This document shows positions 228 to 43,219 of a DNA stretch of 64,000 nucleotides, one piece after another. Source of the DNA: Patescibacteria group bacterium. GTDB lineage: Bacteria; Patescibacteriota; Patescibacteriia; Patescibacteriales; XYC2-FULL-47-12. Each line of letters begins with the position of its first letter. Position 1 is the first letter of the stretch. The stretch is taken from positions 7,393 through 71,392 of the forward strand of contig JBAZGH010000001.1 of the NCBI GenBank assembly GCA_041652935.1, written 5' to 3'. Below the pieces are notes generated by a model, which saw nothing but the letters and a program-made list of their open reading frames with translations, had not been told where the DNA came from and searched no databases. A program made the translations under genes and the position numbers.

Positions 228-476
228 ATGAATACAGAAATAAAACCAGACAATGTTTATACTACAGCCGAAACTCAAAAACTATTGAAAATAAGCAATA
301 GTACTATTAAACGCATGCTAAAAAAGGGGTTAATAAGAGCTAATAAAGTCGGCGGACAATATCGTATTTTAGGTAAAGAAATTTTGCGTCTACTTTCTCC
401 TGAAGTTGAAAAACAAGCAGTTAGATCTTATTTAAGATTAAAAGATAGGGTTGTGAATAAAATTAATAAATGGTAA
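228..476 (+). CDS. Small helix-turn-helix DNA-binding protein of the excisionase/MerR-like HTH_17 family
   Basis: 82 aa. The motif TTAETQKLLKISNSTIKRMLKKGLIRANKVGGQYRI matches the excisionase-family HTH pattern. Confidence 0.6.
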   Translation: MNTEIKPDNVYTTAETQKLLKISNSTIKRMLKKGLIRANKVGGQYRILGKEILRLLSPEVEKQAVRSYLRLKDRVVNKINKW

Positions 477-492
477 TAATTAAAAAATTAGT

Positions 493-1506
493 ATGTTTAA
501 GAAAAATTCAACTTTCATAATTGCCGAGGTCGGAATTAATCATAATGGCAATTTAAAAATTGCTAAAAAATTAATAACTGCTGCTAAAAAATGCGGCGCA
601 GACGCAGTAAAGTTTCAAAGCTTTAAAACCGAAGAATTAATCATAAAAGAATCAAAAAAAGCTGAGCACGTTAAAGGCAAGCAAAGTTTTTTTGAAATGA
701 TAAAAAGCTGGGAGCTTTCTGATAGTGATTATATAAAGTTGGCTGATTTTGCAAAAAAAGAAGGAATTATCTTTTTTGCTTCAATTTTTGGTAAACAATC
801 TTTAAATATAATGGAAAAAATTAAAGCGCCGCTTTATAAAATAGCATCTTGTGATTTAAATAATCATTATTTGTTAAAAAAAGTTGCTAAAACAAAAAAG
901 CCCATTATTATTTCAGTCGGCATGGGTGATATCAATGAAATAAACCAAGCAGTTAAGATTTTAGAAAAAAATAATAATGAATTAGGAATTTTGCATTGTG
1001 TTTCACTTTATCCGCCACAAGCGCAAGAATTGAATTTACAGCGTATCGCTTTATTAAAGAAAAAATTCCCCAAGCACATAGTTGGTTATTCTGACCATAC
1101 TTTAGATATTTTTACTCCAGCATCAACCATTCTCTTGGGAGCGGAAATCATTGAAAAGCATTTTACACTTGATAAGAATATGCCAGGTCCCGATCAGCCC
1201 AGTTCAGCCAATCCGGCAGAATTTAAGAAAATGGTTGAAGAAATCAGATTTTTAGAAAAGGCAATCAATCATCAGGAAAAAAAGATTACCCCATCAGCCC
1301 GAGAAAAAAAGATGAGTAAGGTTTTTAGGCGCAGTTTGGTTGCTGAAATTAATATTCCCAAAAATACAGTTATTACCGAGGCTATGTTGGGCGTTAAACG
1401 GCCGGGAACAGGCATTCCTTCTTCAGTGATGGATAAAGTAATAGGTAAAAAAGCAAAAATTAATTTAATAAAAAATGCGATGATAAAATACTCTAATTTA
1501 AAGTGA
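493..1506 (+). CDS. N-acetylneuraminate (nonulosonic acid) synthase of the NeuB/PseI/LegI family
   Basis: 337 aa. The N-terminus IAEVGINHNGNLKIAKKLI..GADAVKFQSF is a NeuB TIM-barrel signature. A C-terminal SAF-like region is present. Confidence 0.8.
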   Translation: MFKKNSTFIIAEVGINHNGNLKIAKKLITAAKKCGADAVKFQSFKTEELIIKESKKAEHVKGKQSFFEMIKSWELSDSDYIKLADFAKKEGIIFFASIFGKQSLNIMEKIKAPLYKIASCDLNNHYLLKKVAKTKKPIIISVGMGDINEINQAVKILEKNNNELGILHCVSLYPPQAQELNLQRIALLKKKFPKHIVGYSDHTLDIFTPASTILLGAEIIEKHFTLDKNMPGPDQPSSANPAEFKKMVEEIRFLEKAINHQEKKITPSAREKKMSKVFRRSLVAEINIPKNTVITEAMLGVKRPGTGIPSSVMDKVIGKKAKINLIKNAMIKYSNLK

Positions 1507-2480
1507 TGAAGAAGATAAATATTTTAGGTAAAATAAATAAAGATAATTATCAGGAATTCAACGATTCTGACTTTTTAGGTTATGAAGTTTATTTAAAATC
1601 TCAGGATGATTTTGAGCATTTACCGAAGATGACGCAACGATTAAATATTATATCAGTTCATCAGCCCAGCCGAAATTTTAATCTATGTTCAAATGATGAA
1701 GTTGGGAAAGAATCTTTTAATACAGTATTAAAAATGTTGGAATCACTTAACGCTGGCGGTTATCGAAAAATTGTAGTAGTTCATGGCGCTTTTTTCGATG
1801 AAGATGCTTCCAGTAAGCCAGATCATTTAAAAATTTTAGCAGAAAGAATAGATGAATTAGCGCAATTGTTTCCCAAGATTAAAATTACCCTAGAAAATGA
1901 TGTTTGGTTTTTTAATCAAAGTAAAAACAAGCGGGCATTATTAGTTGAAGCAGATGATTTTTTAGAATTAAAAAAATATTTAAAAACCAATCTTTATATT
2001 ACTTTAGATTTTGAACATATTTGGATATCGTCTGTCTTCAAAAATTTTATTGATAATAGCCCGCAATTTTATTTTGAAATTAAAAATTTAGCAGATTTAG
2101 ACAAACCAGAAGCAGCGGCTGTTAAAAAAGTATGGCTGGAATATTTGCAGAAAAATAAAAATAAAATGGATGATATGGCTTTAAAATTTTTAAAAGAATA
2201 TGAAAAATTAAAATCATCAATAATTAATTTTCATCTAAACGGTTCTAATATGCTTAAATATTGGTTTGATTCAAAAACATTTATTCCGCTTATAGGCGAG
2301 CATCTATGCATTAAAGATGTTGATGATATTTTAAATCACCAGCTTATTAAAAATAATATTAAAAATTTAACAGAACAAAGTGAAGCTAATTTAGTTTTAG
2401 AGATATGGCCTAGAAATACTAAACAATATGTTGTTGAATTAAAAAAATCAGGCCAGATAGCTAAAAAAATATATGCTTAA
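1503..2480 (+). CDS. Hypothetical protein, possibly a xylose-isomerase-like TIM-barrel sugar isomerase/epimerase
   Basis: 325 aa. Scattered His/Glu/Asp motifs (ISVHQP, LENDVWFF, DFEHIW, NFHLNGS, LEIWP) resemble the metal-binding residues of AP-endonuclease-2/xylose-isomerase-like barrels. Homology is weak. Confidence 0.3.
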   Translation: MMKKINILGKINKDNYQEFNDSDFLGYEVYLKSQDDFEHLPKMTQRLNIISVHQPSRNFNLCSNDEVGKESFNTVLKMLESLNAGGYRKIVVVHGAFFDEDASSKPDHLKILAERIDELAQLFPKIKITLENDVWFFNQSKNKRALLVEADDFLELKKYLKTNLYITLDFEHIWISSVFKNFIDNSPQFYFEIKNLADLDKPEAAAVKKVWLEYLQKNKNKMDDMALKFLKEYEKLKSSIINFHLNGSNMLKYWFDSKTFIPLIGEHLCIKDVDDILNHQLIKNNIKNLTEQSEANLVLEIWPRNTKQYVVELKKSGQIAKKIYA

Positions 2481-3114
2481 AAATAAAAAAAATATTATTA
2501 TTATCGGCGCGGGTGAAAATGGGGAAGTAGCTTTAAATTGTTTGCTGCAGTACAAAAAAGAATGGAAATTCATTGGTTTTTTAGATGATACTTTTAGCAA
2601 GAATAAAGAGCAAAAAATAATTGGAAAAGTAAATGATTATAAAAAGTATAAAAATAGTTATTTTTATATTGCAATCGGCGATAATTCGGCTCGCCGAAAG
2701 GTATTTGAAAGTTTAAAAAAAGCCAATTGTTTTTTTATTAATTTAATTCATCCCAAAGCTTTTATTGAAAAAAATGTTTGTTTGGGAGAAAGCGTTTTCG
2801 TAGGAGCAAACGTTTATGTTAATATTAAGTGCGCTATTGGCGATAATACTATTATAAACAACGGTTGTATTATTGAACATCATAATACCATCGGGCAACA
2901 TTGCCATTTAGCGCCCGGCGTAATTACCGGCGGAGGCGTGAAAATTAATAATAATGTTTTTATCGGACTAAACAGCGTAATTAGAGACCATGTTGAAATT
3001 AAAAATAATGTTTCTATTGGAATGGGATCTGTGATTACAAAAGACATTTCTTCAGGATTATTAGTTCATAATAATTTACGAATAAAAAGTAAAAAATATG
3101 GGCAAGGAAATTAA
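2473..3114 (+). CDS. Hexapeptide-repeat sugar O/N-acyltransferase (NeuD/PglD/PseH-like)
   Basis: 213 aa. The N-terminal Rossmann-like stretch IIIGAGENGEVALNCL is followed by left-handed beta-helix hexapeptide repeats (IG.N..I...C.I). Confidence 0.7.
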   Translation: MLKNKKNIIIIGAGENGEVALNCLLQYKKEWKFIGFLDDTFSKNKEQKIIGKVNDYKKYKNSYFYIAIGDNSARRKVFESLKKANCFFINLIHPKAFIEKNVCLGESVFVGANVYVNIKCAIGDNTIINNGCIIEHHNTIGQHCHLAPGVITGGGVKINNNVFIGLNSVIRDHVEIKNNVSIGMGSVITKDISSGLLVHNNLRIKSKKYGQGN

Positions 3115-3799
3115 AAAAGCAAAAAATATTTGTTTAATCCCGGCTCGAGGGGGGTCTAAAAGAATTCCTAAAAAAAATATTATTGATTTTTGCGGCAAGC
3201 CTTTAATAGCGCGCACAATTGAGGTTGCCATAAAATCAAAATTATTTAAAGAAATATATATTAGTTCTGATTCGGAAGAAATTTTAAAAATAGCTAGTCG
3301 TTATAAAGTCAAACAAATAAGACGACCAGTCAAACTCGCCAGCAGTAGTGCATTATTGGAAAATGTCACCCTGCATTTATTAAATAATATTTCGGATAAT
3401 TTTGATTATTTATGTCTGTTGATGCCCAATTGCCCCCTGCGCCTTTCGGAAGATATAAAAAAATCATATAAAAAATTAATAAAATCAAAAGCGAATTGTT
3501 TAATGAGCGTGGTTGATTATCATTGGTTAAATCCTTTCTGGGTCATGCAGGAAAAAAATAATCATCTAAAAATGCTTTTTGGCAATAAATATTTTGTTAA
3601 TAATTTTCAAAAATTGCCGCAAGATGTTTATTGCCCGACCGGCGTAGTACGCTGGGTCAAAATTAATAATTTTTTAAAAGAAAAAAAATATTATGGAAAA
3701 GATTTAATAAAATATGAAGTGCCTTTTGAAAGAGGGGTTGACATTGATACTTATCAGGATTTAGAGCTAGCTAAGAAGTTTTATAAAATATTAAAATAA
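3098..3799 (+). CDS. Acylneuraminate cytidylyltransferase (CMP-nonulosonic acid synthetase, NeuA/LegF-like)
   Basis: 233 aa. The N-terminal ICLIPARGGSKRIPKKNI is the CTP_transf_3 motif. Confidence 0.8.
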   Translation: MGKEIKKAKNICLIPARGGSKRIPKKNIIDFCGKPLIARTIEVAIKSKLFKEIYISSDSEEILKIASRYKVKQIRRPVKLASSSALLENVTLHLLNNISDNFDYLCLLMPNCPLRLSEDIKKSYKKLIKSKANCLMSVVDYHWLNPFWVMQEKNNHLKMLFGNKYFVNNFQKLPQDVYCPTGVVRWVKINNFLKEKKYYGKDLIKYEVPFERGVDIDTYQDLELAKKFYKILK

Positions 3800-3817
3800 T
3801 CCATTTAATTAAGAAGT

Positions 3818-4600
3818 ATGCCAAAAAAAATTAATGACGATAATTGGAAAATATGGGATGAATTTAATGTTTACGGTGATATTCTATATAAAAGAGCGAT
3901 TGGCAAAATAGAAGAGATGCAGTCAGCTAAAAGTATCTGTAAATTATTGCCGTCGTTTTATAAAAAGGGGATGAGTCTTTTGGATGTAGGGTGTGGAGCC
4001 GGGCATTATTTGCGGAGTTTGCAGTTAAGATTAGATAAAAATATAAAATATACGGGTGTTGACGCTACCAAGAATTATATTAAGTTGGCCAAAAAAGCAT
4101 TTGGTTCAAAAGCGAATTTTTTAACAGGCGACATTTTCAATTTGCCATTTAATGATAAAGCTTTTGATATTGTAATGTGTAATAATGTTATATTGCATTT
4201 ACCGCCGCCGCCGACAAAAGCAATTTCAGAATTAATTCGAGTAGCTAAAAAATATATAGTTATTCGTACTGTTATTGGTGAAAGAAATTATATAATTAAA
4301 GAGGTCAGAAATTTTAATGAAGGGGCAAAGCTTAAAGTTAAAGATGAAGATTTAATCGGCAAAAATGGATATCCGCTTTCTTATAATTTTTTTAATATGT
4401 ATACCACTGAATATTTAAAAGGTATCATTAATAGAATCGACAAAAATTTAGAGGTTAAGATTGTTTCTGATAATGAGTGGAAATCATTTAATAACAGAAA
4501 GATAGCCGGCGCTTTAGCTACTAAAGTTATTGACGGCAGGCAAGTTTCCGGAAATTTAATGCTTGACTGGAGATATATAATTGTAAAGAAAAAAATATAA
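3818..4600 (+). CDS. Class I SAM-dependent methyltransferase
   Basis: 260 aa. Motif I is LLDVGCGAGHY. Confidence 0.7.
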   Translation: MPKKINDDNWKIWDEFNVYGDILYKRAIGKIEEMQSAKSICKLLPSFYKKGMSLLDVGCGAGHYLRSLQLRLDKNIKYTGVDATKNYIKLAKKAFGSKANFLTGDIFNLPFNDKAFDIVMCNNVILHLPPPPTKAISELIRVAKKYIVIRTVIGERNYIIKEVRNFNEGAKLKVKDEDLIGKNGYPLSYNFFNMYTTEYLKGIINRIDKNLEVKIVSDNEWKSFNNRKIAGALATKVIDGRQVSGNLMLDWRYIIVKKKI

Positions 4601-4616
4601 AATTTATTTATCGTTT

Positions 4617-5747
4617 ATGAAGTTAAAAGAGTATCCCATAGCCAGACCGTTTATTGGCAAGAAAGAGGAGGGGTATGTTTTGGAAGTTTTACGCTCCGGT
4701 GTTTTAAGCATGGGAAAAAAGATTGAAGAATTTGAAAAATTATTTGCCAAGCATATTAGAACTAAATATGCCTGCGCGGTATCCAGTGGAACTGCTGGTC
4801 TTCATCTAATTATGATTGCAACGGATATTAAATCCGGAGATGAAGTAATTACCACTCCTTTTTCCTTTATAGCTTCAGCCAATTCTATTTTGTACGTTGG
4901 CGCTAAGCCGGTGTTTGTTGATATTAATCCTAATACATACAATATAGATGTTAATAAAATAGAAGAAAAAATTACCAAAAAAACTAAAGCTATTTTGGTG
5001 GTGCATATTTTTGGGCAAACAGCTGACATGAAGCCAATAAAAGCTATTGCCAAAAAATATAAGCTCAAAATTATTGAAGATGCCTGCGAGTCAATCAGCG
5101 CTTCTTATGATGGCCAACAGGCCGGAACCTTCGGCGAGTCAGCGGTATTTGCTTTTTATCCCAACAAGCAATTAACTACCGGAGAAGGCGGTATGATAGT
5201 TACAAATAAAAAGAAAATTTACGATTTATGCGTAAGCTTGCGCAACCAAGGGCGGGCAAAAAATATGCAATGGCTTGACCATGAATATTTAGGTTATAAT
5301 TATCGCATGGATGAAATGAGCGCGGCAGTAGGATTGGCTCAACTGGAAAAAATAAATTGGATGATTGCCGAACGTCGTAAAATCGCAAAATGGTATAATA
5401 AATATTTATCTTCTTATACTGATTTAGTACAGTTGCCGATAACCGCTAAGGGAAATAAACATAGCTGGTTCGTATATGTGATCAAATTAGTGCCAAAAAA
5501 TATTAATCGGAATAAAATTATAAATCAATTGAAACTTAAAAAAATTTATACTAAGCTCTATTTACCAGCAATTCATTTATTTGATTTTTATAGAAAGTTG
5601 CATGGTTATAAAAGGGGGGATTTTCCACAAACCGAAAAAGCCGCTGATGTATGCCTAGCCTTGCCTTTTTATATCGGCTTAAAGGAAAAAGATGTAAAAT
5701 ATATCGTTGATCAGTTATTAATCATTATAAAAAAATATGAAAAATAA
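4617..5747 (+). CDS. DegT/DnrJ/EryC1/StrS-family PLP-dependent sugar aminotransferase (PseC/LegC-like)
   Basis: 376 aa. It has the typical DegT layout, with AVSSGTAGLHL and a lysine-containing region. Confidence 0.8.
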   Translation: MKLKEYPIARPFIGKKEEGYVLEVLRSGVLSMGKKIEEFEKLFAKHIRTKYACAVSSGTAGLHLIMIATDIKSGDEVITTPFSFIASANSILYVGAKPVFVDINPNTYNIDVNKIEEKITKKTKAILVVHIFGQTADMKPIKAIAKKYKLKIIEDACESISASYDGQQAGTFGESAVFAFYPNKQLTTGEGGMIVTNKKKIYDLCVSLRNQGRAKNMQWLDHEYLGYNYRMDEMSAAVGLAQLEKINWMIAERRKIAKWYNKYLSSYTDLVQLPITAKGNKHSWFVYVIKLVPKNINRNKIINQLKLKKIYTKLYLPAIHLFDFYRKLHGYKRGDFPQTEKAADVCLALPFYIGLKEKDVKYIVDQLLIIIKKYEK

Positions 5748-6789
5748 ATTATTAAATGAATTTAAAGGTAAGCGAATTTTAGTGACTGGTGGAACAGGCT
5801 CTATCGGATCAACAATTGTTAAAGAGCTTTTAAAGTACCGACCGCGCCAAATTCGTATTTTTAGTCGTGATGAAACCAAGCAATTTGAATTAATGCATCA
5901 AATTAGTTCCTCAGTCCCAGTTAATTTTTTAATTGGTGATGTGCGGGATAAAGACCGTTTAAGCATGGCGATGGAAAATATTGATATTGTTTTTCACGCG
6001 GCAGCGCTTAAGCACGTAACGGCTTGCGAAAGAAATCCCTTCGAAGCGATGAAAACTAATGTTCAAGGGACGCAGAATATGATTGATTGCGCCTTTGCCA
6101 ATAAGGTTGATAAAGTGATCGTGATTTCCACTGATAAAGCAACCGACCCGGCTAATGTGATGGGGTGCACCAAACTTTTAGCTGAAAAAATGGTTTTAGC
6201 CAGCTTCTTTTATAAAGGGAACAAAAATACTAAAATTTGCTGTGTTCGGTTCGGCAATGTTTTAGGTTCTCGTGGTTCAGTAGTCCCTTTATTTATTAAT
6301 CAAATAAAACGTAATCAGCCAGTTACCATTACTGACCCCAACATGACCAGATTTTTCATGTCTATTGAACAAGCGGTTCAATTGGTATTTAAATCCGCTG
6401 TTATGACAAAAAATTGTGAAATTTTTGTATTAAAAATGCCGGTAATAGCCATTAAAGATCTAGCTAAAGCTGTTATTGAAATTTTTCAAGAAAAAAATAA
6501 AATTAAGTTAAATATCCCCATTAAAATTATTGGAAAAAGGGGAGGTGAACGGATTTACGAAAAGCTTTTAACCGCAGAGGAATCGTTGGGAGCGCTAGAG
6601 ACAGATGAGATGTTTATCGCTCTCCCAAGTTTAATAGATCCAAAACCGGGATATGAATTTTTAAAAGACAATTATTATCCTGGCGCCAAGAAAGCCAAAA
6701 TAGGGGAATACTTATCAAAAGATATTAAAAAAATGCCAATTAAAAAAATTAAGGAATTATTATTATCTAATAAAGATTTAGATTTTTAA
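5737..6789 (+). CDS. UDP-N-acetylglucosamine 4,6-dehydratase (PseB/CapD/LegB-like short-chain dehydratase)
   Basis: 350 aa. The N-terminal ILVTGGTGSIGS is an NAD(P)-binding motif, and the polysaccharide-dehydratase core is present. Confidence 0.8.
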   Translation: MKNKLLNEFKGKRILVTGGTGSIGSTIVKELLKYRPRQIRIFSRDETKQFELMHQISSSVPVNFLIGDVRDKDRLSMAMENIDIVFHAAALKHVTACERNPFEAMKTNVQGTQNMIDCAFANKVDKVIVISTDKATDPANVMGCTKLLAEKMVLASFFYKGNKNTKICCVRFGNVLGSRGSVVPLFINQIKRNQPVTITDPNMTRFFMSIEQAVQLVFKSAVMTKNCEIFVLKMPVIAIKDLAKAVIEIFQEKNKIKLNIPIKIIGKRGGERIYEKLLTAEESLGALETDEMFIALPSLIDPKPGYEFLKDNYYPGAKKAKIGEYLSKDIKKMPIKKIKELLLSNKDLDF

Positions 6790-6805
6790 AATATTAAAAA
6801 TTACT

Positions 6806-10044: not shown

Positions 10045-10052
10045 AATTTTAT

Positions 10053-12157: not shown

Positions 12158-12164
12158 ATTTATT

Positions 12165-13166
12165 ATGGATTATAATATTAAAAAAGAAATAAATCAATTT
12201 ATTTATAAATACCAAAAAGAAGATGTTAATGAGAAGTTGGGAAAAATTTTAGGGGATGATTTTAAAAAATATCGGAATGATTTTAATAAAACTCAGAATT
12301 ACCATGAAACAAAATTTATACCTGATTTTCCCATAACGATTTCATTAGAATTGGTCAATAGATGTAATTTGGATTGCATAATGTGTCTAGAAAATCAACA
12401 TACTCAGCCAAAATCACAACTAAGTTTAGATGATATAAAAAGGATTTTAGATGAAAGCCAGAAAAATAATATGCCATCTATTGAACTAGGACTAGGGTCG
12501 GAGGTGATGATGTATAAAGATATTCAGGAAGTAGTTATGCTTGTTAAAAAAGCTGGTATTTTAGATGTATTTTTTAGCACTAACGGCATATTATTAAATG
12601 ACGAAATAATTCGAGCAATTATTGATAATAAAATTACCCGAATAAAAATATCATTAGACGCCGCTACTGAAGAAACTTATAAAAAAATAAGGCGTAGAGC
12701 CCCCTCATTAAAAATAACTGAAGACAATATTAAAAAAATAATCGCTTGGAAAAAGAAGAAAAATAGTCCGATTCCTGTAATTCGCCTTAGTTTTATAATA
12801 ATGGATATTAATAAGCATGAAATAAAACAGTTTATAGATAAATGGAAAGACGAAGTTGATTATATAGATTTCCAAAAACTCATTGATTTTTCACATGTTG
12901 GTAAAACGGTGTTACTTGATGAAGTTAAACAAGAAGTAATTAAAGATTCTTTTTGCGCCTATCCTTTCTATAGCTTAAATATTTGGGCTAATGGAGATGT
13001 AAGCCCGTGTTGCACTTTTTATGGAAAGGACTTGATTATGGGGAATATTCATCAGCAAACCCTGAAAGAAATATGGAATAGTAAAAAAATGAAATTAATT
13101 CGTGAACAGCTTTATTCTAAAAAATTCAATCCAATTTGTCAAAAATGTTTATATTTTAGAGATTAA
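12165..13166 (+). CDS. Radical SAM protein with a C-terminal SPASM/twitch cysteine cluster
   Basis: 333 aa. CNLDCIMC is a CX3CX2C motif. The C-terminus carries C...CC...CQKC. Confidence 0.7.
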   Translation: MDYNIKKEINQFIYKYQKEDVNEKLGKILGDDFKKYRNDFNKTQNYHETKFIPDFPITISLELVNRCNLDCIMCLENQHTQPKSQLSLDDIKRILDESQKNNMPSIELGLGSEVMMYKDIQEVVMLVKKAGILDVFFSTNGILLNDEIIRAIIDNKITRIKISLDAATEETYKKIRRRAPSLKITEDNIKKIIAWKKKKNSPIPVIRLSFIIMDINKHEIKQFIDKWKDEVDYIDFQKLIDFSHVGKTVLLDEVKQEVIKDSFCAYPFYSLNIWANGDVSPCCTFYGKDLIMGNIHQQTLKEIWNSKKMKLIREQLYSKKFNPICQKCLYFRD

Positions 13167-13218
13167 AATTAATAGATGGTAGTTTTTAAACTAAAAATTT
13201 AATTGTAAAATAAGCACT

Positions 13219-14160
13219 ATGAATATATTAATAGTTGGTTTTGGCTCAATTGGACAAAGGCATTATAAAAATTTATTAATGCTGGGTTTTAAAGATATCT
13301 ATATTTACGACACCGATAGCGCAAAAATTAATAATAAAAATTTCAAAGTAATAAAGAAATTTGATAAAAAAAGTTTAGAAATATTTGACATAGCCTTTAT
13401 CTGTAACCCCAATAATAAGCACATTAATTCAGCGATTAAATGCGCGGAAGCAGGCTGTCATTTATTTATTGAAAAACCTCTTTCGCATACTTTGCAAGAT
13501 ATTGATAAACTACAAAAAATTTGTCAGAGTAAAAAACTAATAACTATGATTGGTTGTAATATGCGTTTTCATCCGTGTTTAAAATTTATCAAAAATTATT
13601 TAAATAAAAATAAATTGGGTAAAATATACAGCGTCCATCATGAATTCGGCCATTATTTGCCATATTGGCGAGTTGGGCAGGATTATCGTAAAAATTATGC
13701 CGTTAAAAAATCTACCGGTGGCGGAATTATTTTAGACGATATACACGAATTTGATTTATTATTTTGGTTTAACGATTTTAAAAAAATAAAAAATTCAAAA
13801 TTTATTTATAATAAATTAAGTAATCTAGAAATTAAAACAGAGGATTTCTGTTTAGCTGTTTTTCAATTTACTAATAAAATTATTGGCTCTGTACAATGTG
13901 ATTATTTACAACAAAATTATACTAGAAATTGTAAAATTATAGGCGTTAAGGGAAATTTAGAGTGGGACTTCAATGAAAATGTTGTTTGGTTAAAAAACAA
14001 ACAAAATGAGAAAAAATTATTTGCGGTTGATAATTTTAATTTTAATAAAGTTTATTTAGAAGAAATAAAATATTTTTTTAGTTGTATTTCTAAGAAAAAA
14101 GAAACTTTTAATGATACAAAAATTGCTTATGGAGTCTTGAAGTATTGTATAAATAGATAA
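13219..14160 (+). CDS. Gfo/Idh/MocA-family NAD(P)-dependent oxidoreductase
   Basis: 313 aa. The N-terminal ILIVGFGSIGQRH is a Rossmann motif, followed by an EKP motif. Confidence 0.7.
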   Translation: MNILIVGFGSIGQRHYKNLLMLGFKDIYIYDTDSAKINNKNFKVIKKFDKKSLEIFDIAFICNPNNKHINSAIKCAEAGCHLFIEKPLSHTLQDIDKLQKICQSKKLITMIGCNMRFHPCLKFIKNYLNKNKLGKIYSVHHEFGHYLPYWRVGQDYRKNYAVKKSTGGGIILDDIHEFDLLFWFNDFKKIKNSKFIYNKLSNLEIKTEDFCLAVFQFTNKIIGSVQCDYLQQNYTRNCKIIGVKGNLEWDFNENVVWLKNKQNEKKLFAVDNFNFNKVYLEEIKYFFSCISKKKETFNDTKIAYGVLKYCINR

Positions 14161-14163
14161 AAT

Positions 14164-14955
14164 ATGAAAAAAAATAAACAAAAAAACCTATGCATAATCC
14201 AAGCCCGTTATGGATCGACTCGTTTACCGGGCAAAGTTTTAAAGAAGGTTGATGGGCTTACTTTACTTGAATATGAAATAATTAGAGTTAAGCAGGCGAA
14301 AAAAATTGATAAAATTGTCATAGCAACCACTAAAAATAAATCCGACAAGAAAATTGAAGAATTATGCCAAAGAATAAAAATAGATTGTTTTTGCGGTTCA
14401 GAAAATGACGTATTAGATCGTTACTATCAATGTTCCTTGGAATACCCCGAATATAAAAATGTTATTCGGATTACTGGAGATTGTCCATTAATTGATCCGG
14501 TGATAATTGATAAAGTCATTAGTTTTTTTACCAAGAGAAAGCTTGATTATACTAGTAATATTGAGTTAGATACTTTTCCTGACGGTATGGATGTAGAAAT
14601 TTTTAAAAAAGACATTTTAATTGAAACTGCTAAAAGAGCTAAATTACCCTCAGAACGAGAACATGTTACTTATTATATCCGAAAAAATAAAAAATATAAA
14701 AAAGGAAATTTAACCGCGTGTAATAACTGGTCTCATTTTCGCTTAACAGTCGATGAACCAATTGATTTTGAGGTTATAAAATTTTTAATTAAAAATAGTA
14801 AAATTACTGATGGATACTTAGATTATATCTCGCTTTTAACTAAGAATCCAAAAGTAATGCTTAGTAATATTAATATTATTAGAAATGAGTGGAAATTAAA
14901 AGCTTTAAAAGAAGACGGAGAATTTAAAAAACAATATGCCAAAAAAATTCACTAA
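14164..14955 (+). CDS. CMP-sugar cytidylyltransferase (SpsF/PseF-like)
   Basis: 263 aa. CIIQARYGSTRLPGKVL is the SpsF/PseF-type motif. Confidence 0.75.
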   Translation: MKKNKQKNLCIIQARYGSTRLPGKVLKKVDGLTLLEYEIIRVKQAKKIDKIVIATTKNKSDKKIEELCQRIKIDCFCGSENDVLDRYYQCSLEYPEYKNVIRITGDCPLIDPVIIDKVISFFTKRKLDYTSNIELDTFPDGMDVEIFKKDILIETAKRAKLPSEREHVTYYIRKNKKYKKGNLTACNNWSHFRLTVDEPIDFEVIKFLIKNSKITDGYLDYISLLTKNPKVMLSNINIIRNEWKLKALKEDGEFKKQYAKKIH

Positions 14956-16225
14956 AAGTCAACAATTATTTAATAAAACTAGCAAAAGTATACCTCTTGC
15001 TTCGCAAACTTTTTCCAAAAGTTATTTGCAATATGTGAGAGGGCAGGCACCTTTATTTATCACACATGGCAGTGGTTCTCACGTTTGGGATGTTGACGGC
15101 AACAAATATGTGGATATGATAAACGGCTTATTGCCAGTAATTTTAGGATATCAATATAAAGCAGTTGATGATGCGATAAAAAATCAGCTAAATAAAGGAA
15201 TAATTTTTTCTCTGCCGTCCCCATTAGAATGTGAATTAGCTAGAATTTTGATTAAGCATATCCCTTGCGCTGAGATGGTCCGTTTTGGCAAAAACGGCTC
15301 CGATGTTACTTCTGGCGCAGTAAGGTTGGCACGGGCAATAACAGGTCGCAGTCATATTGCTTGTTGCGGTTATCATGGTTGGCATGATTGGTATATAGGG
15401 ACTACTGTTAGAAATTTAGGTGTGCCGAAAGAAACACAAAAATTGACCCATAGTTTTAAATATAATGATGTGGATTCTTTAAAAGAAGTTTTTAGAAAAA
15501 ATAAGAATAGAATTGCAGCTGTAATTATGGAACCGATGAACTATGTTGATTTACGGCCTGGATTTTTACAGCAGGTAAAGAAAATAACGCACGACAAAGG
15601 CGCCTTATTGATTTTTGATGAAATTATAACCGGTTTCAGGTATGATTTGGGGGGAGCGCAAAAATTATTCAGAATAACTCCAGATTTAGCAACTTTTGGG
15701 AAGGCAATGGCAAATGGCATGCCAATTGCCGCATTGGTCGGCAAAAAAAAATATATGAAACACGCTGAAGATATCTTTTACTCGTTTACTATGGGGGGCG
15801 AGGCATTATCTTTGGCAGCGGCAATAGCAACTATTAAAGAACTTGAACAGAAAAAAGTTATAAAGTATATTTGGAAACTTGGGAAATATTTGCAGGATAA
15901 TACCAATAATTTTTTGAAAGAAAATAAATTAGATGAGATTATAAAGGTGCGGGGAAAACCTTGTTGGCAGGTATTTATTATCAAGCCATCAGGAAAATTT
16001 AGCGATCTGGAAATAAAAAGCTACTTGCAGCAGGAAATACTACAGGCAGGATTTTTATGGTATGGACAGCATAATATGAGTTTCAGCCATACAAAAAAAG
16101 ATATGGACAGATTATTAGGAGTTTATAAAAAAGTATTTAAAAATTTAAAGGGGTTAATTGATAGTGGAAGATTAAGGGGGGAATTGAGAGGGCAACCGAT
16201 AACTAATATTTTTAAGGTTAGGTAA
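14936..16225 (+). CDS. Class-III PLP aminotransferase (glutamate-1-semialdehyde aminomutase-like)
   Basis: 429 aa. It has the AT-III fold motifs, including FDEIITGFR and a lysine region. Confidence 0.7.
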   Translation: MPKKFTKSQQLFNKTSKSIPLASQTFSKSYLQYVRGQAPLFITHGSGSHVWDVDGNKYVDMINGLLPVILGYQYKAVDDAIKNQLNKGIIFSLPSPLECELARILIKHIPCAEMVRFGKNGSDVTSGAVRLARAITGRSHIACCGYHGWHDWYIGTTVRNLGVPKETQKLTHSFKYNDVDSLKEVFRKNKNRIAAVIMEPMNYVDLRPGFLQQVKKITHDKGALLIFDEIITGFRYDLGGAQKLFRITPDLATFGKAMANGMPIAALVGKKKYMKHAEDIFYSFTMGGEALSLAAAIATIKELEQKKVIKYIWKLGKYLQDNTNNFLKENKLDEIIKVRGKPCWQVFIIKPSGKFSDLEIKSYLQQEILQAGFLWYGQHNMSFSHTKKDMDRLLGVYKKVFKNLKGLIDSGRLRGELRGQPITNIFKVR

Positions 16226-16226
16226 T

Positions 16227-16838
16227 ATGAATTCAACTAAGGTGTTATTTATTTTAGGTGGTGGATTAGTAAAAAAAGATAATAAATGGAGAACTACCAA
16301 TTTCAAGGAAGGAGATAAATTTGGCGCTTCAGGCGATAGGTTAAGGGTGGTGGCTGGAAGCTGTTTATATAAAAATAATTCAGAATATTTAATAATAACA
16401 TCAGGCGGCAAGGGGCAATATAAAAACGTTCCAAATTCTCTAACTGTAGCCGAGGTAATGAGACGAGAATTATTAGAGCTAGGCGTATTAGAGGAGACAA
16501 TAATAAAGGAAGAGGAATCTAGCAATACTTGGGAGCAATTACAACAGTTAAAAAAGATTATTCAAAAAGAAAATTTTATTAAAATAAAAATTCTTTCCAG
16601 TAGATATCATTTACCACGTGTGCGGGCGATGATTGAAGTTGATGGCAGATTAAATGAAATATTTAAAAAAGAAGTATTAGAATTAGTTTCTGCTGAAGAA
16701 ATTTTAATTAAACACAATGAAAATAAGTGGAAGAATTTTATTGAAAAAGCATATTCAAGCGAGGCTATGAAAAAAAGAATTACTTTAGAAAAACAGGGGA
16801 TTAAACAAATTAAAAACGGTACTTATAGTTTAAAATAA
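16227..16838 (+). CDS. DUF218 (YdcF/SanA/ElyC-like) domain protein
   Basis: 203 aa. The stretch ILGGG...ITSGGKG...SRYHLPR is typical of DUF218. Confidence 0.55.
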   Translation: MNSTKVLFILGGGLVKKDNKWRTTNFKEGDKFGASGDRLRVVAGSCLYKNNSEYLIITSGGKGQYKNVPNSLTVAEVMRRELLELGVLEETIIKEEESSNTWEQLQQLKKIIQKENFIKIKILSSRYHLPRVRAMIEVDGRLNEIFKKEVLELVSAEEILIKHNENKWKNFIEKAYSSEAMKKRITLEKQGIKQIKNGTYSLK

Positions 16839-16840
16839 TT

Positions 16841-17905
16841 ATGAAATATATTGAAATTAAAACTCCTAAAGGAAAAAGAAAAATTGGTCCAGGCCAGCCA
16901 GTATTTATAATCGCTGAAATGTCCGGTAATCACAACCAATCTTTTGCGCGCGCCAAGAAAATAATTGATGCCGCGGTTGACGCTGGAGTTGATGCAATAA
17001 AGCTGCAAACTTATACCGCCGATACAATGACGATAGATTGCGATAAAAAATATTTCCAAGTAAAAGTTAATGACGCGTGGAAAGGGCAAAGTTTATATCA
17101 ATTATATAAAAAAGCTTACACGCCATGGAAGTGGCAACCAAAATTAAAAAAATATGCGGAAAGTAAGGGTTTAGTTTGTTTTTCTACTCCTTTTGATGAA
17201 ACTGCAGTTGATTTTTTGGAAAAGATGAACGTACAACTTTATAAAATTGCCTCATTTGAAGTAGTTGATATTCCATTACTTAAAAAAATTGGAAAAACTA
17301 GAAAGCCAGTAATTATGTCACGTGGCATGGCTTCAATTGAAGAAATTAAGCTGGCGGTTAAGACGCTGAAAGATAATGGCGCGCCACATGTCGCAGTTCT
17401 CCATTGTGTAAGTTCATATCCAGCTAAATCGGAACAAATGAACTTAGCTACTATTCCAGATATTACTAAAAAGTTTAAAGTAATATCCGGTTTATCTGAT
17501 CATACCTTAGGAATCGTTGCATCCTTAATTTCCGTAGCTTTAGGCGCCTGCATCATTGAAAAACATTTTACTTTACGTAGGTCTGACGGAGGTCCAGACG
17601 CTAATTTTTCTTTAGAGCCGAATGAATTAAAAGAATTAGTTAAAAATGTGAGAGAATCAGAAAAAGCTATTGGTAAGCCAAATTATGTAATCAAAGGATC
17701 AGATGAGCAAAAAATGAGAAATTATCGAAGATCTCTCTTTGTTGTTAAGGAAATTAAGAAAGGAAATTTAATAACTTATGAAAATGTCAAATCAATTCGT
17801 CCTAGTTATGGACTGCCACCTAAGTATTTAGACAAAGTTATTAAGAAAAGAGCTAGCAAGGATTTAAGTATTGGCACCCCCTTATCTTTTAATTTAATAA
17901 AATAA
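16841..17905 (+). CDS. Pseudaminic/N-acetylneuraminic acid synthase family (NeuB/PseI-like)
   Basis: 354 aa. IIAEMSGNHNQSFARAKKIIDAAVDAGVDAIKLQTY is a NeuB signature. This is the second copy in the locus. Confidence 0.8.
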   Translation: MKYIEIKTPKGKRKIGPGQPVFIIAEMSGNHNQSFARAKKIIDAAVDAGVDAIKLQTYTADTMTIDCDKKYFQVKVNDAWKGQSLYQLYKKAYTPWKWQPKLKKYAESKGLVCFSTPFDETAVDFLEKMNVQLYKIASFEVVDIPLLKKIGKTRKPVIMSRGMASIEEIKLAVKTLKDNGAPHVAVLHCVSSYPAKSEQMNLATIPDITKKFKVISGLSDHTLGIVASLISVALGACIIEKHFTLRRSDGGPDANFSLEPNELKELVKNVRESEKAIGKPNYVIKGSDEQKMRNYRRSLFVVKEIKKGNLITYENVKSIRPSYGLPPKYLDKVIKKRASKDLSIGTPLSFNLIK

Positions 17906-17911
17906 AATTAA

Positions 17912-18700
17912 ATGTCAGAAAAAAAAGTAAAAAAAATTCATAATTTTTGGAATGAACGCGCCAAAGAGCATAAAACAAGTTATTTAGCTACAGTACCAGA
18001 TAAATTCTTAAAAGAATTAGAGATTAAAAATATTTTGAAATATATTCCTAAGAAAAAAATTAAAGTCGTTGATATTGGTTGTGGTAATGGATTTTCTACT
18101 ATTGCTTTTGCCAAAGAAAGACAAGCTGATTTTTTAGGAGTTGATTATTCAGAAAATATGATTGAGCAGGCTCAAAAAATATTACTTCAACGCAAAAAAA
18201 AAATCAAAGGAAAGGTACGATTTATATCGGGTAATATTTTAAATTTAAATTTTTTATCGCCAGCTACTCATGATATTGTATCAACCGATCGTTGTTTAAT
18301 AAATTTAGTCTCTTTATCAGATCAAAAAAAAGCAATTAAGGAAATATCAAGAGTATTAAAAAAGGGCGGTAAGTATATAATGTGCGAAGATACCAAGGAA
18401 GGATTAAGGAAACTTAATGAATTACGTATTTTGGCTGGTCTTGAAGCTATTCCTAATCATTGGCATAATTTATACTTAAATGAAAAAGAATTGCTACCAT
18501 ATATAGAAAGATATTTTAAAATTATTAAAATTGATAATTTTTCCAGCTTATATTATATTGCTTCCCGTATTTTCAATGCCGTATCAGCAATAGATATAAA
18601 AACCCCCAATTATTTAAGCGTTATTAATAAAACAGCTACTAAACTGCCTTCAATTGGAGATTATTCACCTTTAAAAATATTTTATTTAGAGAAAAAATAA
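17912..18700 (+). CDS. Class I SAM-dependent methyltransferase
   Basis: 262 aa. Motif I is VVDIGCGNGFST. Confidence 0.7.
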   Translation: MSEKKVKKIHNFWNERAKEHKTSYLATVPDKFLKELEIKNILKYIPKKKIKVVDIGCGNGFSTIAFAKERQADFLGVDYSENMIEQAQKILLQRKKKIKGKVRFISGNILNLNFLSPATHDIVSTDRCLINLVSLSDQKKAIKEISRVLKKGGKYIMCEDTKEGLRKLNELRILAGLEAIPNHWHNLYLNEKELLPYIERYFKIIKIDNFSSLYYIASRIFNAVSAIDIKTPNYLSVINKTATKLPSIGDYSPLKIFYLEKK

Positions 18701-18703
18701 TAC

Positions 18704-19375
18704 ATGAATTATGTTATTGCCAGTATAAAATCATGGAATGAAGATAATTATAAAATTTTTTTTGATAAGAGTAAAAATTTTTATTTGATAACTAATAAAA
18801 AAGATTTAACATTTGCTAAATTAAAAAAAATAAATCCTAAATATATTTTTATTCCACATTGGTCTTGGATAATACCGGAAAGTATCTGGAGTAATTTTAA
18901 TTGCGTAGTTTTTCATATGACTGATTTGCCATATGGGCGCGGTGGCACTCCCTTGCAAAATTTAATTTTGCGTGGTCATAAAACCACAAAAATATCAGCT
19001 ATTAAAGTTAACAGAGGGATTGACACGGGAAATATTTATTTGAAAGAAAGTTTAAGCTTAAATGGAAGCGCTGAAGAGATTTATCAACGTGCATCAAAGA
19101 TTATTTTTAATAAAATGATTCCTAAAATTATAAAAAATAATCCAATTCCAAAGAAACAATGCGGAAAAATTGTAAAATTTAATCGCAGAAAACCAGGACA
19201 AAGCGAGATTTCCTCAGGCATGAATTTAAAAAAAGTTTATGATCAAATTAGGATGTTGGATGCGGAAGATTACCCCAGAGCATATTTAAAGACTAAAAAA
19301 TTGAAATTTAATTTTTCTAAAGCTCAATTAAAAAATAAAAAATTAATTGCTAATGTTGAAATATATGAAGAATAA
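18704..19375 (+). CDS. Formyltransferase-family protein (sugar N-formyltransferase-like, Fmt N-domain)
   Basis: 223 aa. FHMTDLPYGRGGTPLQNLIL resembles the H-x-S-L-L-P-x-x-R-G catalytic motif of formyl transferases. Confidence 0.6.
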   Translation: MNYVIASIKSWNEDNYKIFFDKSKNFYLITNKKDLTFAKLKKINPKYIFIPHWSWIIPESIWSNFNCVVFHMTDLPYGRGGTPLQNLILRGHKTTKISAIKVNRGIDTGNIYLKESLSLNGSAEEIYQRASKIIFNKMIPKIIKNNPIPKKQCGKIVKFNRRKPGQSEISSGMNLKKVYDQIRMLDAEDYPRAYLKTKKLKFNFSKAQLKNKKLIANVEIYEE

Positions 19376-20042
19376 TATTTTAGTAATAGCTGCCCATCCT
19401 GATGACGAAATATTAGGCATAGGCGGTACAATTTTAAAGCATATTAAAAACGGTGATCAAGTTAGCATCTTAATCCTAGGGGATGGTGAAAGTTCAAGAA
19501 TGAGTGCGACTGCGGTTGATATTGCAAAAAGAAAAGAACAAGTTAAAGAAGTAGCTAAAAAATTAAAAATTAAAAATATTTTTATTGATGAATTACCTGA
19601 TAATAAATTTGATTCAGTAAGTTTGCTAGAAATAATTAAAAAAATAGAAACTATAATAAATAAGATAAAACCAAATATTATTTATACACATCATGCGCAT
19701 GATTTAAACATTGATCATTGTTTGACTTTTCAAGCAGTGTTAACTGTTTGTCGACCTCAGCCAGATTTTTTTGTGAAAAAAATATTAACCTTTGAAACTT
19801 TATCTTCAACCGAATGGCAAATTAAAAATGGACAAAATAATTTTTGTCCAAACGAATATGTTAATATTGAAAAATTTATTAATAAAAAAATTGAAATTTT
19901 AGAGATATACAAAGATGAATTGAGAGATTGCCCTCATCCTCGTTCGATTGAAGGTGTAAAAGTTTTAGCCAAATATAGAGGAATGGAAGTCGGTTATAAA
20001 TACGCTGAAGCTTTTCAAGTAATTAGAAACTTAAATGATTAA
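19347..20042 (+). CDS. PIG-L/LmbE-family N-acetylglucosaminyl deacetylase
   Basis: 231 aa. AAHPDDEILGIGGT is the LmbE zinc-site motif. Confidence 0.75.
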   Translation: MLMLKYMKNNILVIAAHPDDEILGIGGTILKHIKNGDQVSILILGDGESSRMSATAVDIAKRKEQVKEVAKKLKIKNIFIDELPDNKFDSVSLLEIIKKIETIINKIKPNIIYTHHAHDLNIDHCLTFQAVLTVCRPQPDFFVKKILTFETLSSTEWQIKNGQNNFCPNEYVNIEKFINKKIEILEIYKDELRDCPHPRSIEGVKVLAKYRGMEVGYKYAEAFQVIRNLND

Positions 20043-42710: not shown

Positions 42711-42872
42711 CGCCCTCACCCCTAACCCCTCTCCCAAAGGGAGAGGGGGAAAATGTCAATTTAACTTTATTTATAATTTTATTAAATAATATAAAATAAA
42801 TAAACTCCAAAATTATTTCTGTTATGACGAGAGGGAACTCCCTCTCCTCGTGGGAGAGGGTTGGGGTGAGGG
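42711..42872. mobile_element. MITE-like element of 162 bp with imperfect GC-rich terminal inverted repeats and an AT-rich core
   Basis: The left end CCCTCACCCCTAACCCCTCTCCC-AAA-GGGAGAGGGGG and the right end CCCTCTCC-TCGTG-GGAGAGGG-TTGGGGTGAGGG are reverse complements of each other. Each contains a local hairpin. Confidence 0.6.
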
Positions 42873-42877
42873 AATAT

Positions 42878-43213: not shown

Positions 43214-43219
43214 GGAATT

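Follow-up and report, generated by a model that had tools for sequence, protein, structure and literature searches.

Does a locus with two sets of genes for nonulosonic acids serve two sugars or one, and by which enzymes? The question is raised by a stretch of 64,000 nucleotides from a Patescibacteria group bacterium (positions 7,393 to 71,392 of the forward strand of contig JBAZGH010000001.1, assembly GCA_041652935.1; hereafter the window), at the left end of which two neighbouring groups of genes for these sialic-acid-like sugars are found, module A at 493–6789 and module B at 10053–20042. A preliminary description of the sequence had read them as two full, diverged sets of pseudaminic (Pse) or legionaminic (Leg) type, yielding either two products or one elaborated sugar. 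We favour, at a probability of about 60%, a single Patescibacteria surface-glycan operon that joins two separately evolved pathways to cytidine monophosphate (CMP)-activated 5,7-diamino-3,5,7,9-tetradeoxy-nonulosonic acids, with export and transfer genes in common. Two CMP-nonulosonate products are most likely, since each module occurs alone in other Patescibacteria; of the preliminary description, this alternative is the one favoured, and the idea of two complete canonical sets did not stand.

The region 228–20042 is composed of 21 open reading frames (ORFs), all on the forward strand, which overlap or are separated by gaps of at most 52 nt. Every gene named in the preliminary description was found at its place, and the peptides quoted there, ILVTGGTGSIGS and ILVTGGTGSFGK, are present in the translations. 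To that gene list we add an ORF at 1503–2480, an ABC exporter at 6806–8599 and a Capsule_synth transferase at 8596–10044. Four enzymes are present in two diverged copies each: a uridine diphosphate (UDP)-GlcNAc dehydratase, a DegT aminotransferase, a NeuB-family synthase and a CTP_transf_3 cytidylyltransferase. By BLASTP the dehydratases are 45% identical (E 4e-79), the DegT aminotransferases 42.5% (1e-92) and the NeuB synthases 40% (4e-66), and the two cytidylyltransferases barely align with each other. With paralogues only 40–45% identical, a recent duplication is ruled out; the paralogues are diverged, as had been claimed, and the two sets are far from near-identical.

That the arrangement is an artefact, be it such a duplication or a chimeric contig put together from two organisms, has a next to negligible probability. 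The sequence does come from a metagenome assembly, and the GC content of the operon (30.5%) differs from that of the rest of the window (37.9% in 20051–64000), yet GC is even along the operon itself, with 31.4% in module A, 30.4% in the middle genes and 30.1% in module B. Moreover, an independent metagenome contig from another sample (L088 in our numbering of related loci), with about 80–95% amino-acid identity, holds module A, the ABC exporter, the Capsule_synth gene, PseB, PseC and the radical SAM gene in identical order. As it spans the junction between the modules, this junction is not a product of assembly. On the other side, module B is continuous on Logan contig L001 with holB and frr, two of the housekeeping genes that occupy the window beyond 23 kb (rseP, murJ, lepA, recJ, ftsEX, pgk and others being found there too). 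Equally low GC in both modules is typical of variable surface-glycan islands.

The enzymes of both modules were placed by NCBIfam equivalog cut-offs and by bit scores against PDB structures. Judged by sequence in this way, the core of module B is a genuine pseudaminic-acid core, since its PseB, PseC and PseI all pass the equivalog cut-offs: the PseB dehydratase (10053–11048; TIGR03589, 449.1 bits, cut-off 407.75), which carries the motif [ST]DKxnYx3K, the PseC aminotransferase (11045–12157; TIGR03588, 460 bits, cut-off 423.5) and the pseudaminic acid synthase PseI (16841–17905; TIGR03586, 481.8 bits, cut-off 340.25). The best PDB match of the latter is a PseI structure (8h2c, 281 bits), against at most 181 bits for NeuB or SpsE. 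The cytidylyltransferase of this module (CTase_B, 14164–14955) is a candidate CMP-Pse synthetase of the CTP_transf_3 family (Pfam, 101.6 bits), whose best PDB match is 6oew, annotated as "cytidylyltransferase" (135 bits). Neither CTase_B (27 bits) nor its module A counterpart CTase_A (162 bits) reaches the PseF cut-off of 205.7 bits, and both lie within the wider CTP_transf_3 family. Following the preliminary description, we take CTase_B to be SpsF-like, the computed basis being its membership of CTP_transf_3 and the match to 6oew.

Around this core, module B holds a set of putative tailoring genes. A radical S-adenosylmethionine (SAM)/SPASM enzyme (12165–13166), which follows PseC in module B-type loci and may act in sugar tailoring, has orthologues 58–63% identical in L096 and L098 and 83% identical in L088. 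It is followed by a GFO/IDH/MocA NAD(P) oxidoreductase (13219–14160), whose best match is of the UDP-GlcNAc 3-dehydrogenase type and which has a 58% identical orthologue in L097. The class III (GSA-aminomutase-like) aminotransferase at 14936–16225 is a hallmark of Patescibacteria module B-type loci: the 120 matches listed all have 67% identity or more and represent many lineages of the candidate phyla radiation (CPR), Gribaldo-, Wildermuth-, Falkow-, Yanofsky-, Buchanan- and Paceibacteria being among those listed. In L098 (7807–9621, protein P0180, 604 residues) this aminotransferase is fused to an N-terminal GNAT domain. Directly upstream of the synthase lies a DUF218 protein (16227–16838; Pfam, 65.9 bits), which has the same position in L097 and L098, is separated from the synthase by two genes in L096, and in L002 precedes a second NeuB that is not of PseI type. 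Downstream of PseI we find a class I SAM methyltransferase (MTase_B, 17912–18700), then a short formyltransferase-like protein (18704–19375; Formyl_trans_C_2, 74.5 bits; Formyl_trans_N, 29.1 bits), a candidate N-formyl (N-acyl) transferase in place of PseH, and finally a PIG-L/LmbE-type metal-dependent de-N-acetylase (19347–20042; Pfam, 98.5 bits), whose gene overlaps that of the formyltransferase and whose motifs AHPDDE and HxDH are intact. A 66% identical orthologue of the formyltransferase-like protein adjoins PIG-L in L098 as well.

Module A is of another kind. Its synthase NeuB_A (493–1506) scores 354.3 bits on the LegI/NeuB model TIGR03569, below the equivalog cut-off of 399.65, and 268 bits on TIGR03586; its scores against PDB entries are almost equal for NmNeuB (197 bits), SpsE (185) and PseI (183). 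Both synthases of the window are recorded with the Pfam domains NeuB (PF03102) and SAF (PF08666), and their strong matches are to NeuB and PseI models only. NeuB_A matches no other model, and the matches of PseI to models of DAHP synthase (which makes 3-deoxy-D-arabino-heptulosonate 7-phosphate) stay at or below 30 bits. By these profiles both copies are nonulosonate synthases and neither is a KDO8P (3-deoxy-D-manno-octulosonate 8-phosphate) or DAHP synthase, so that the doubt raised in the preliminary description, that one copy might fall outside this group, can be dismissed. About 29 homologues are at least 59% identical to NeuB_A, the next full-length matches being only about 48% identical. 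All named members are metagenome-assembled genomes (MAGs) of Harrisonbacteria, Doudnabacteria, Parcubacteria or the Patescibacteria group, or an unclassified "bacterium"; the clade of NeuB_A is thus, as far as it is known, almost confined to Patescibacteria. A scan of genome contigs with the alignment of this clade, keyed to generic NeuB motifs, returned only relatives 34–46% identical from many phyla (L008–L087). The SDH and EKH histidines, which presumably correspond to the metal ligands of NmNeuB, and the RPG motif are invariant throughout the clade.

The remaining enzymes of module A likewise fall short of the canonical models. The exception is the PglD/NeuD-type hexapeptide N-acetyltransferase at 2473–3114 (TIGR03570, the NeuD/PglB/VioB subfamily, 195.6 bits, cut-off 160.8), an acetyltransferase of the LegH/PglD type found in the CMP-legionaminic pathway; a PglD_N domain is recorded in an identical protein on L099. 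CTase_A (3098–3799) belongs to CTP_transf_3 and to the NeuA/PseF family of CMP-nonulosonate synthetases, with 162 bits on the PseF model as given above and best PDB matches to CMP-Neu5Ac synthetases (NeuA, 79 bits). A class I SAM methyltransferase (MTase_A, 3818–4600) is conserved alongside NeuB_A, the product of ORF 1503–2480 and CTase_A, with orthologues 61–66% identical in L007, L091 and L092 and 93% identical in L088. The sugar C4 aminotransferase DegT_A (4617–5747) is below the cut-offs of both PseC (331 bits against 423.5) and LegC (TIGR04181, 285 bits against 420), scores higher on the former, and has perosamine synthetase as its best PDB match. The UDP-GlcNAc 4,6-dehydratase DH_A (5737–6789, Polysacc_synt_2) reaches 316 bits on the PseB model (cut-off 407.75) and only 75 bits on the LegB model TIGR04180 (cut-off 475). 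Its motif STDK...NVMGCTK is the TDKxnMx3K fingerprint, hence a dehydratase of the Met type; this form is listed for the C5-retaining PglF/WbpM class and the Yx3K form for inverting enzymes (PMC8987622). The PDB scores of DH_A favour Pen of B. thuringiensis (6bwc, 296 bits), FnlA/CapE (about 250) and FlaA1 (234) over PglF (192).

By equivalog cut-offs module A therefore fits neither the Pse, the Leg nor the neuraminic acid (Neu) pathway and is best classed as a lineage-typical one; the label "Pse/Leg-type" cannot be kept for it, all of its core enzymes being under the cut-offs. A legionaminic-like product (D-series) is somewhat more likely, because the acetyltransferase is of the PglD type and the synthase scores higher on NeuB/LegI (354 bits) than on PseI (268 bits).

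Several canonical steps are missing altogether. Scans against NCBIfam or Pfam covered the ORFs of the operon and most of the remaining window ORFs with 100 residues or more, and neither PseH (no match to TIGR03585 or GNAT) nor PseG (no match to TIGR03590, Glyco_tran_28_C or another GT-B family) was detected in the operon or the rest of the 64 kb; a match to LegG/NeuC (Epimerase_2) was found nowhere in the window. In tblastn searches of the window, for which GNAT, GT-B-like, NeuC and WbuX-like proteins from related CPR loci served as queries, all E values exceeded 0.1; those of the GT-B-like proteins of L096 and L098 were 0.79 or worse, and a genuine NeuC from L004 (TIGR03568, 321 bits) gave no match. 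The homologues of PseG/LegG and PseH whose presence had been left to be checked are thus not found in the window. Neither module has a PseG or LegG/NeuC and module B has no PseH or GNAT, so the two sets are not full; the diverged pairs of dehydratase, aminotransferase, synthase and cytidylyltransferase do bear out the claim of two diverged sets. Stand-alone module B-type loci, L096 and L098, do have a GNAT gene and a GT-B-like gene, the latter matching MGDG_synth and Epimerase_2 weakly, together with a WbuX/HisH/HisF-like amidotransferase set, none of which is found in the window. Perhaps module B relies here on module A for nucleotide removal and N-acylation. DUF218 was considered as the sole substitute for PseG and rejected, since L096 and L098 retain it alongside their GT-B-like gene.

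A candidate for the missing nucleotide removal is the protein of 325 residues encoded at 1503–2480 (TIM hereafter), an endonuclease-IV-like TIM-barrel protein and, by its fold and conserved residues, a putative metalloenzyme. Its AlphaFold2 model is confident (pLDDT 87.5) and has the xylose-isomerase-like TIM-barrel fold; the top Foldseek match is E. coli endonuclease IV (Nfo), at E 2e-10. Across 34 diverse members of the family, no variation was seen at residues H53, H94, E131, D169, H172, H244 and E300; E266 is conserved in 33 and H267 in 30 of these sequences. An hhalign comparison of this family of 34 sequences with E. coli Nfo, in a sequence identical to that of 1qtw, gave E 2.7e-4 over 254 columns and paired H94 with H109, E131 with E145, D169 with D179, H172 with H182 and E300 with E261, which makes five of the nine metal ligands of endonuclease IV (H69, H109, E145, D179, H182, H216, D229, H231 and E261). 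H53, H244, E266 and H267 were matched to endonuclease IV ligands by eye only (NFHLNG/GMHLND, GEH/DRH), hhalign aligning that stretch differently. With a profile of only 11 TIM sequences the comparison to Nfo had not reached significance (probability 0.2), and a PDB sequence search with the TIM profile gave no match. TIM has its fold in common with Nfo and the xylose-isomerase-like superfamily, and its conserved residues, all located at the ends of strands, follow one another in the way they do there (H, H, E, D-x-x-H, H, (D/E)-H, E). It differs in a sequence identity of only 12–21%, in a helical insertion of about 45 residues, and in that its family is tiny and tied to NeuB rather than to DNA repair.

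A word-indexed search found 11 homologues, every named one from a Patescibacteria MAG, and an exhaustive hidden Markov model search, run over 1.84 billion representatives, yielded 60 at E ≤1e-3 and 18 at E ≤1e-30. A metagenome scan with the TIM alignment gave 8 loci, and the gene lies directly after NeuB_A in 8 distinct loci. TIM is fused to NeuB-SAF in two proteins, P0253 (L100:482–2629, 715 residues) and P0254 (L103:10001–12196, 731 residues), and to a PIG-L deacetylase in P0261 (L101:3324–5012, 562 residues). L103 (GCA_964343575.1) also encodes an S_layer_C protein, a Wzx flippase, a Capsule_synth protein and a Hexapep-DegT fusion; from the fusions and from this gene company, the family may reach beyond Patescibacteria. 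As TIM invariably adjoins NeuB or is joined to it in one protein, it presumably acts on a nucleotide sugar or sugar phosphate instead of DNA. A compact cluster in L101/L102 unites a Met-type dehydratase, a Hexapep-DegT fusion, TIM-PIG-L, a formyltransferase, NeuB, a CTase_A-type cytidylyltransferase and Capsule_synth, with no PseG or NeuC in it, and TIM has similar company in L100 and L103. Its association with DH_A-type and DegT_A-type genes thus persists in L101/L102, L100 and L103 at 28–54% identity.

The sugar of these clusters is 6-deoxy and therefore cannot carry a 6- or 9-phosphate. Taken with the missing PseG/NeuC step, this makes nucleotide removal the most economical role for TIM. 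We therefore propose, tentatively and at a little under even odds, that TIM would remove the nucleotide from a UDP sugar, possibly with 2-epimerisation, and so feed NeuB. No firmer is the wider suggestion that TIM founds a new enzyme family, an endonuclease IV-like metallo-phosphoesterase that would replace PseG/LegG/NeuC on UDP-2,4-diacetamido-2,4,6-trideoxyhexoses and would, in this genome, supply a nonulosonate pathway of Patescibacteria type as well as a Pse pathway deprived of its own hydrolase.

The same building blocks recur elsewhere. A core of HTH_17, NeuB_A, TIM and CTase_A, often with MTase_A, was found in eight distinct Patescibacteria loci. In the window and in L088, L004, L006 and L002 it is interleaved with DegT_A, DH_A and an N-acyltransferase gene, the last varying in type (PglD-like, formyltransferase, short hexapeptide or GNAT). 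Module A-type loci stand alone in L006, L007, L091 and L092 and module B-type loci in L096 and L098, and the two are joined in L088 as in the window. Both L096 and L098 keep the sub-block of PseB, PseC and radical SAM gene; the class III aminotransferase and DUF218 stand upstream of the synthase in L096, L097 and L098, the L097 synthase not being of PseI type; and the formyltransferase and PIG-L pair is present in L098 and L101. In L002, NeuB_A is paired with a NeuB linked to DUF218, and in L004 with a NeuB that has the genuine NeuC mentioned above. As these two loci pair NeuB_A with other synthases and both modules of the window exist independently, combining nonulosonate modules is a recurring theme in this group. 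A protein of 302 residues in the module A-type locus L006 (15862–16770) gives a borderline alpha-2,8-polysialyltransferase match (PF07388, 23.0 bits, gathering score 23.3).

Between the modules lie the genes that may serve both. The fused permease and ATPase at 6806–8599 is an MsbA/PglK/HepA-like ABC exporter, with orthologues 49–95% identical in L002, L006, L007, L088 and L096. The Capsule_synth (KpsC/KpsS-like) protein at 8596–10044 is recognised by PF05159 (40.2 bits, cut-off 20) over residues 304–411 only, the C-terminal third of the ORF, and weakly matches KpsC structures in the PDB (E 0.1); a homologue is present in nearly every related locus. KpsC and KpsS, which transfer beta-Kdo (Kdo being 3-deoxy-D-manno-octulosonic acid), use a CMP-activated ulosonic acid as donor. 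The window protein shares with them the domain above its gathering score, is very distant from them otherwise, and would use a nonulosonate instead of Kdo. From its family and its co-occurrence with NeuB loci we propose that it is a CMP-nonulosonate-dependent glycosyltransferase.

From family memberships, paralogue divergence and the recurring architecture we infer how the operon would work, including catalytic roles for TIM, DUF218, the class III aminotransferase, the formyltransferase-like protein and the Capsule_synth protein, the sharing of enzymes, the products and the acceptor. In module A, DH_A and DegT_A would form a UDP-amino sugar, whose C4 amine the PglD-type enzyme would acetylate. 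TIM would then remove UDP, possibly with epimerisation at C2, in place of PseG/LegG; NeuB_A and CTase_A would follow, and MTase_A would methylate. In module B, PseB and PseC would convert UDP-GlcNAc into UDP-4-amino-4,6-dideoxy-L-AltNAc, which either the formyltransferase-like protein or the PglD-type enzyme of module A would N-acylate; TIM is again the candidate for nucleotide removal. PseI would condense the freed sugar with phosphoenolpyruvate (PEP) and the SpsF-like CTase_B would make the CMP sugar. The N-acyl groups or the backbone may be tailored by PIG-L and the formyltransferase, the methyltransferase, the radical SAM enzyme, the GFO oxidoreductase and the class III aminotransferase: the overlap of the formyltransferase and PIG-L genes suggests an exchange of N-acetyl for N-formyl, and the pairing of oxidoreductase and aminotransferase would suit an oxidation followed by amination. 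A neighbouring phosphoglycosyltransferase would start the acceptor, the Capsule_synth protein would add the CMP-activated sugars to it, and the ABC transporter would export the product.

Some observations weigh against this reading of the operon as two pathways. All of the evidence is in silico and the sequence comes from a MAG. A single Capsule_synth transferase would have to accept two proposed donors. CTase_B is no PseF orthologue and related loci carry two SpsF-like genes, which leaves its substrate uncertain, and module B may here be incomplete and inactive. Moreover, in L007, L091 and L092 NeuB_A, TIM and the cytidylyltransferase occur with no DegT_A or full-length DH_A within 10 kb, which fits other roles of TIM, and in L002 the slot between NeuB_A and CTase_A is filled by a non-homologous protein (11018–11872, 284 residues), whose only match, to PP2C, stays below the gathering score of 24 (22.4 bits, E 1e-4). 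This protein was tested as a divergent TIM and rejected, being unrelated to the family; possibly it is another phosphoesterase, non-homologous to TIM, that fills this role.

Three further readings have to be weighed against these facts. The modules could cooperate on one elaborated nonulosonate or a disaccharide unit, the second pair of synthase and cytidylyltransferase being redundant or acting on an intermediate. The lack in module B of the PseG and PseH equivalents that its stand-alone versions possess would agree with this, as would the single operon with its one Capsule_synth gene, and TIM, PIG-L and formyltransferase, which lie at opposite ends of the window operon, come together with a single NeuB in L101/L102. 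Yet there are two NeuB synthases and two cytidylyltransferases, each ending a pathway, and we know of no route that takes one sugar through two nonulosonate synthases. The occurrence of both modules alone, and the pairing of NeuB_A with other NeuB types in L002 and L004, which suggests free combination of modules, speak in the same direction, and we hold a single product to be rather improbable. Alternatively, module A itself could be split: DH_A, DegT_A and the acetyltransferase would make a bacillosamine-like UDP-diacetamido-trideoxyhexose, and NeuB_A, TIM and CTase_A would follow an animal-like route, in which a nonulosonate-9-phosphate formed from a sugar-6-phosphate and PEP is dephosphorylated by TIM to a sialic-acid- or KDN-like product that is not 9-deoxy. 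The phosphoesterase-like active site of TIM, the weakly PP2C-phosphatase-like slot protein of L002 and the recurrence of NeuB_A, TIM, cytidylyltransferase and methyltransferase in L007, L091 and L092 could be read in this way, and a fusion of NeuB with a phosphatase in Leptospira interrogans has been taken as a sign of an animal-like pathway (PMC3438082). Such a split seems unlikely, if slightly less so than the single product, given that genes for the acyltransferase, DegT_A and DH_A stand among those of NeuB_A and CTase_A in five loci including the window, that TIM stays with DH_A- and DegT_A-type genes even where these are only 28–54% identical, and that neither a kinase nor a sugar-6-phosphate epimerase was found in these loci; in L101/L102 a 9-phosphate intermediate is impossible, the sugar there being 6-deoxy.

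Finally, module B could be a decaying or silent remnant, with module A alone functional, for which the absence from the window of counterparts to the GNAT and GT-B-like genes of L096/L098 may be cited. We regard this as improbable: all 11 ORFs of module B are intact, tightly packed and 42–72% identical to orthologues elsewhere, the catalytic motifs of PseB and PIG-L are preserved, and PseB, PseC and the start of the radical SAM gene are retained in the L088 relative at about 80–95% identity.

Several nonulosonate pathways in one locus are already known. The flagellin glycosylation locus of Campylobacter jejuni and C. coli carries PseBCHGIF and LegBCHGIF/Ptm side by side, as diverged paralogues with methyltransferase and amidotransferase tailoring genes; it has canonical PseG, PseH and LegG, builds Leg from GDP-linked precursors, and Maf proteins transfer the sugars onto flagellin. 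The window resembles it in having two diverged nonulosonate enzyme sets and tailoring genes in one place, and differs in the absence of PseG, PseH, LegG and a flagellin context and in the presence of a KpsC/S-like transferase, an ABC exporter and a phosphoglycosyltransferase. Compared with the canonical CMP-pseudaminic pathway, module B matches PseB, PseC and PseI at equivalog level. It lacks PseH and PseG in the window, has an SpsF-like CTase_B in place of PseF, and adds the radical SAM/SPASM enzyme, the GFO oxidoreductase, the class III aminotransferase, DUF218, the formyltransferase-like protein and PIG-L. Module A recalls the UDP-dependent legionaminic/bacillosamine route (PglF/WbpM, PglE/LegC, PglD/LegH, LegG, LegI, LegF) and the sps pathway to Leg in B. 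subtilis in its Mx3K dehydratase, PglD/NeuD acetyltransferase, synthase leaning to NeuB/LegI and NeuA-like cytidylyltransferase, whereas its enzymes stay below the LegB, LegC and NeuB/LegI cut-offs and TIM stands in place of LegG/NeuC. The gene cluster of L. interrogans, with several aminotransferases, nonulosonate synthases and CMP-nonulosonate synthetases and with biochemical support for several nonulosonates, is likewise a multi-pathway locus, and one of its synthases is fused to a phosphoesterase-type domain (PMC3438082). Leptospira belongs to another phylum and has a large genome. Its cluster has a complete legionaminic pathway, the targets of polymerase chain reaction including neuC, which was not found in the window (PMC3438082). 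There the phosphatase follows the synthase at its C-terminal end, whereas in the TIM fusions TIM precedes NeuB. Set against the known systems, the window differs in its host lineage, in the absence of PseG/PseH/LegG, and in the rare NeuB-linked TIM family together with the conserved class III aminotransferase and DUF218 as partners of PseI.

On the left, only a regulator-like gene and a promoter-like site mark the boundary of the locus. The first ORF (228–476) encodes an HTH_17/excisionase-type DNA-binding protein of 82 residues (TIGR01764, 35.9 bits, cut-off 28.8), a putative locus regulator. Orthologues 71–80% identical are found in L006, L007, L091, L092, L096 and L098, at or near the start of a forward-strand gene run (for instance at L006:2450–2701, L007:8721–8969, L096:715–963 and L098:1899–2147), and this protein is better conserved across loci than most of the enzymes; probably it is a dedicated regulator of these operons. 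Directly upstream, at 193–221 on the forward strand, lies the best sigma-70-like promoter match of the region (TTGACA-17-TAAAAT with TG, score 11 of 12). Promoter-like matches, like those of the terminator scan, are overall at chance level, and this site stands out only by position and score.

On the right, a polyprenyl-phosphate glycosylphosphotransferase (Bac_transf; 20051–21433, reverse strand) is convergent with the operon (TIGR03025, 368.9 bits, cut-off 295.55; Pfam Bac_transf, 205.8 bits) and likely initiates a lipid-linked glycan. It is followed by a B12-binding radical SAM enzyme (21627–23297, forward strand), possibly a glycan C-methylase, of a domain class that recurs beside these loci: B12-binding/Radical_SAM genes adjoin L004, L006 and L007, and the relatives in L007, L091 and L092 are only 23–24% identical to the window gene. 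Further along, the enolase gene (52953–54223), whose product supplies the PEP needed by both NeuB enzymes, is apparently frameshifted. The ORF 52953–53678 reads as enolase and then runs out of frame, and the ORF 53474–54223, whose frame is open from 53438, holds the rest; the frame changes at an A6 run or close to it, which may reflect an indel of the assembly or a genuine frameshift. Beside pgk and enolase stand two tandem, overlapping paralogues of cofactor-independent phosphoglycerate mutase (54232–55821 and 55809–57395; iPGM_N and Metalloenzyme). At 41386–41955 and 42039–44281 a PduL-type phosphate propanoyltransferase gene adjoins a ribokinase-like gene, and further on a small second glycan group combines DUF2304 and a GT2 with a PpgS/AglJ-like polyprenyl-phosphate sugar synthase; this trio (GT2, DUF2304 and neighbours) is seen in L103 too.

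Full-text literature searches returned no publication in which nonulosonic or pseudaminic acids are connected with Patescibacteria or the CPR, a large NeuB phylogeny makes no mention of either, and a search for class III aminotransferases in Pse clusters gave nothing useful. On these grounds the nonulosonate surface chemistry of Patescibacteria appears undescribed. Nonulosonic acids shape the recognition of cells by hosts, phages and partner cells, and CPR/Patescibacteria have genomes of about 1 Mb and are thought to live attached to other cells. About 20 kb is given here to two nonulosonates despite so small a genome, and genes of the module type are widespread in the CPR, as seen from the class III aminotransferase. 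TIM is a testable candidate for a non-homologous replacement of PseG/LegG/NeuC, and DUF218 and the class III aminotransferase are flagged as conserved partners of PseI. If the proposed reading is true, these loci would offer new enzymes for the chemo-enzymatic synthesis of rare nonulosonates and markers by which CPR surface glycans could be predicted from metagenomes, and ultra-small CPR bacteria would be coated with two sialic-acid-like sugars made through a partly non-homologous pathway.

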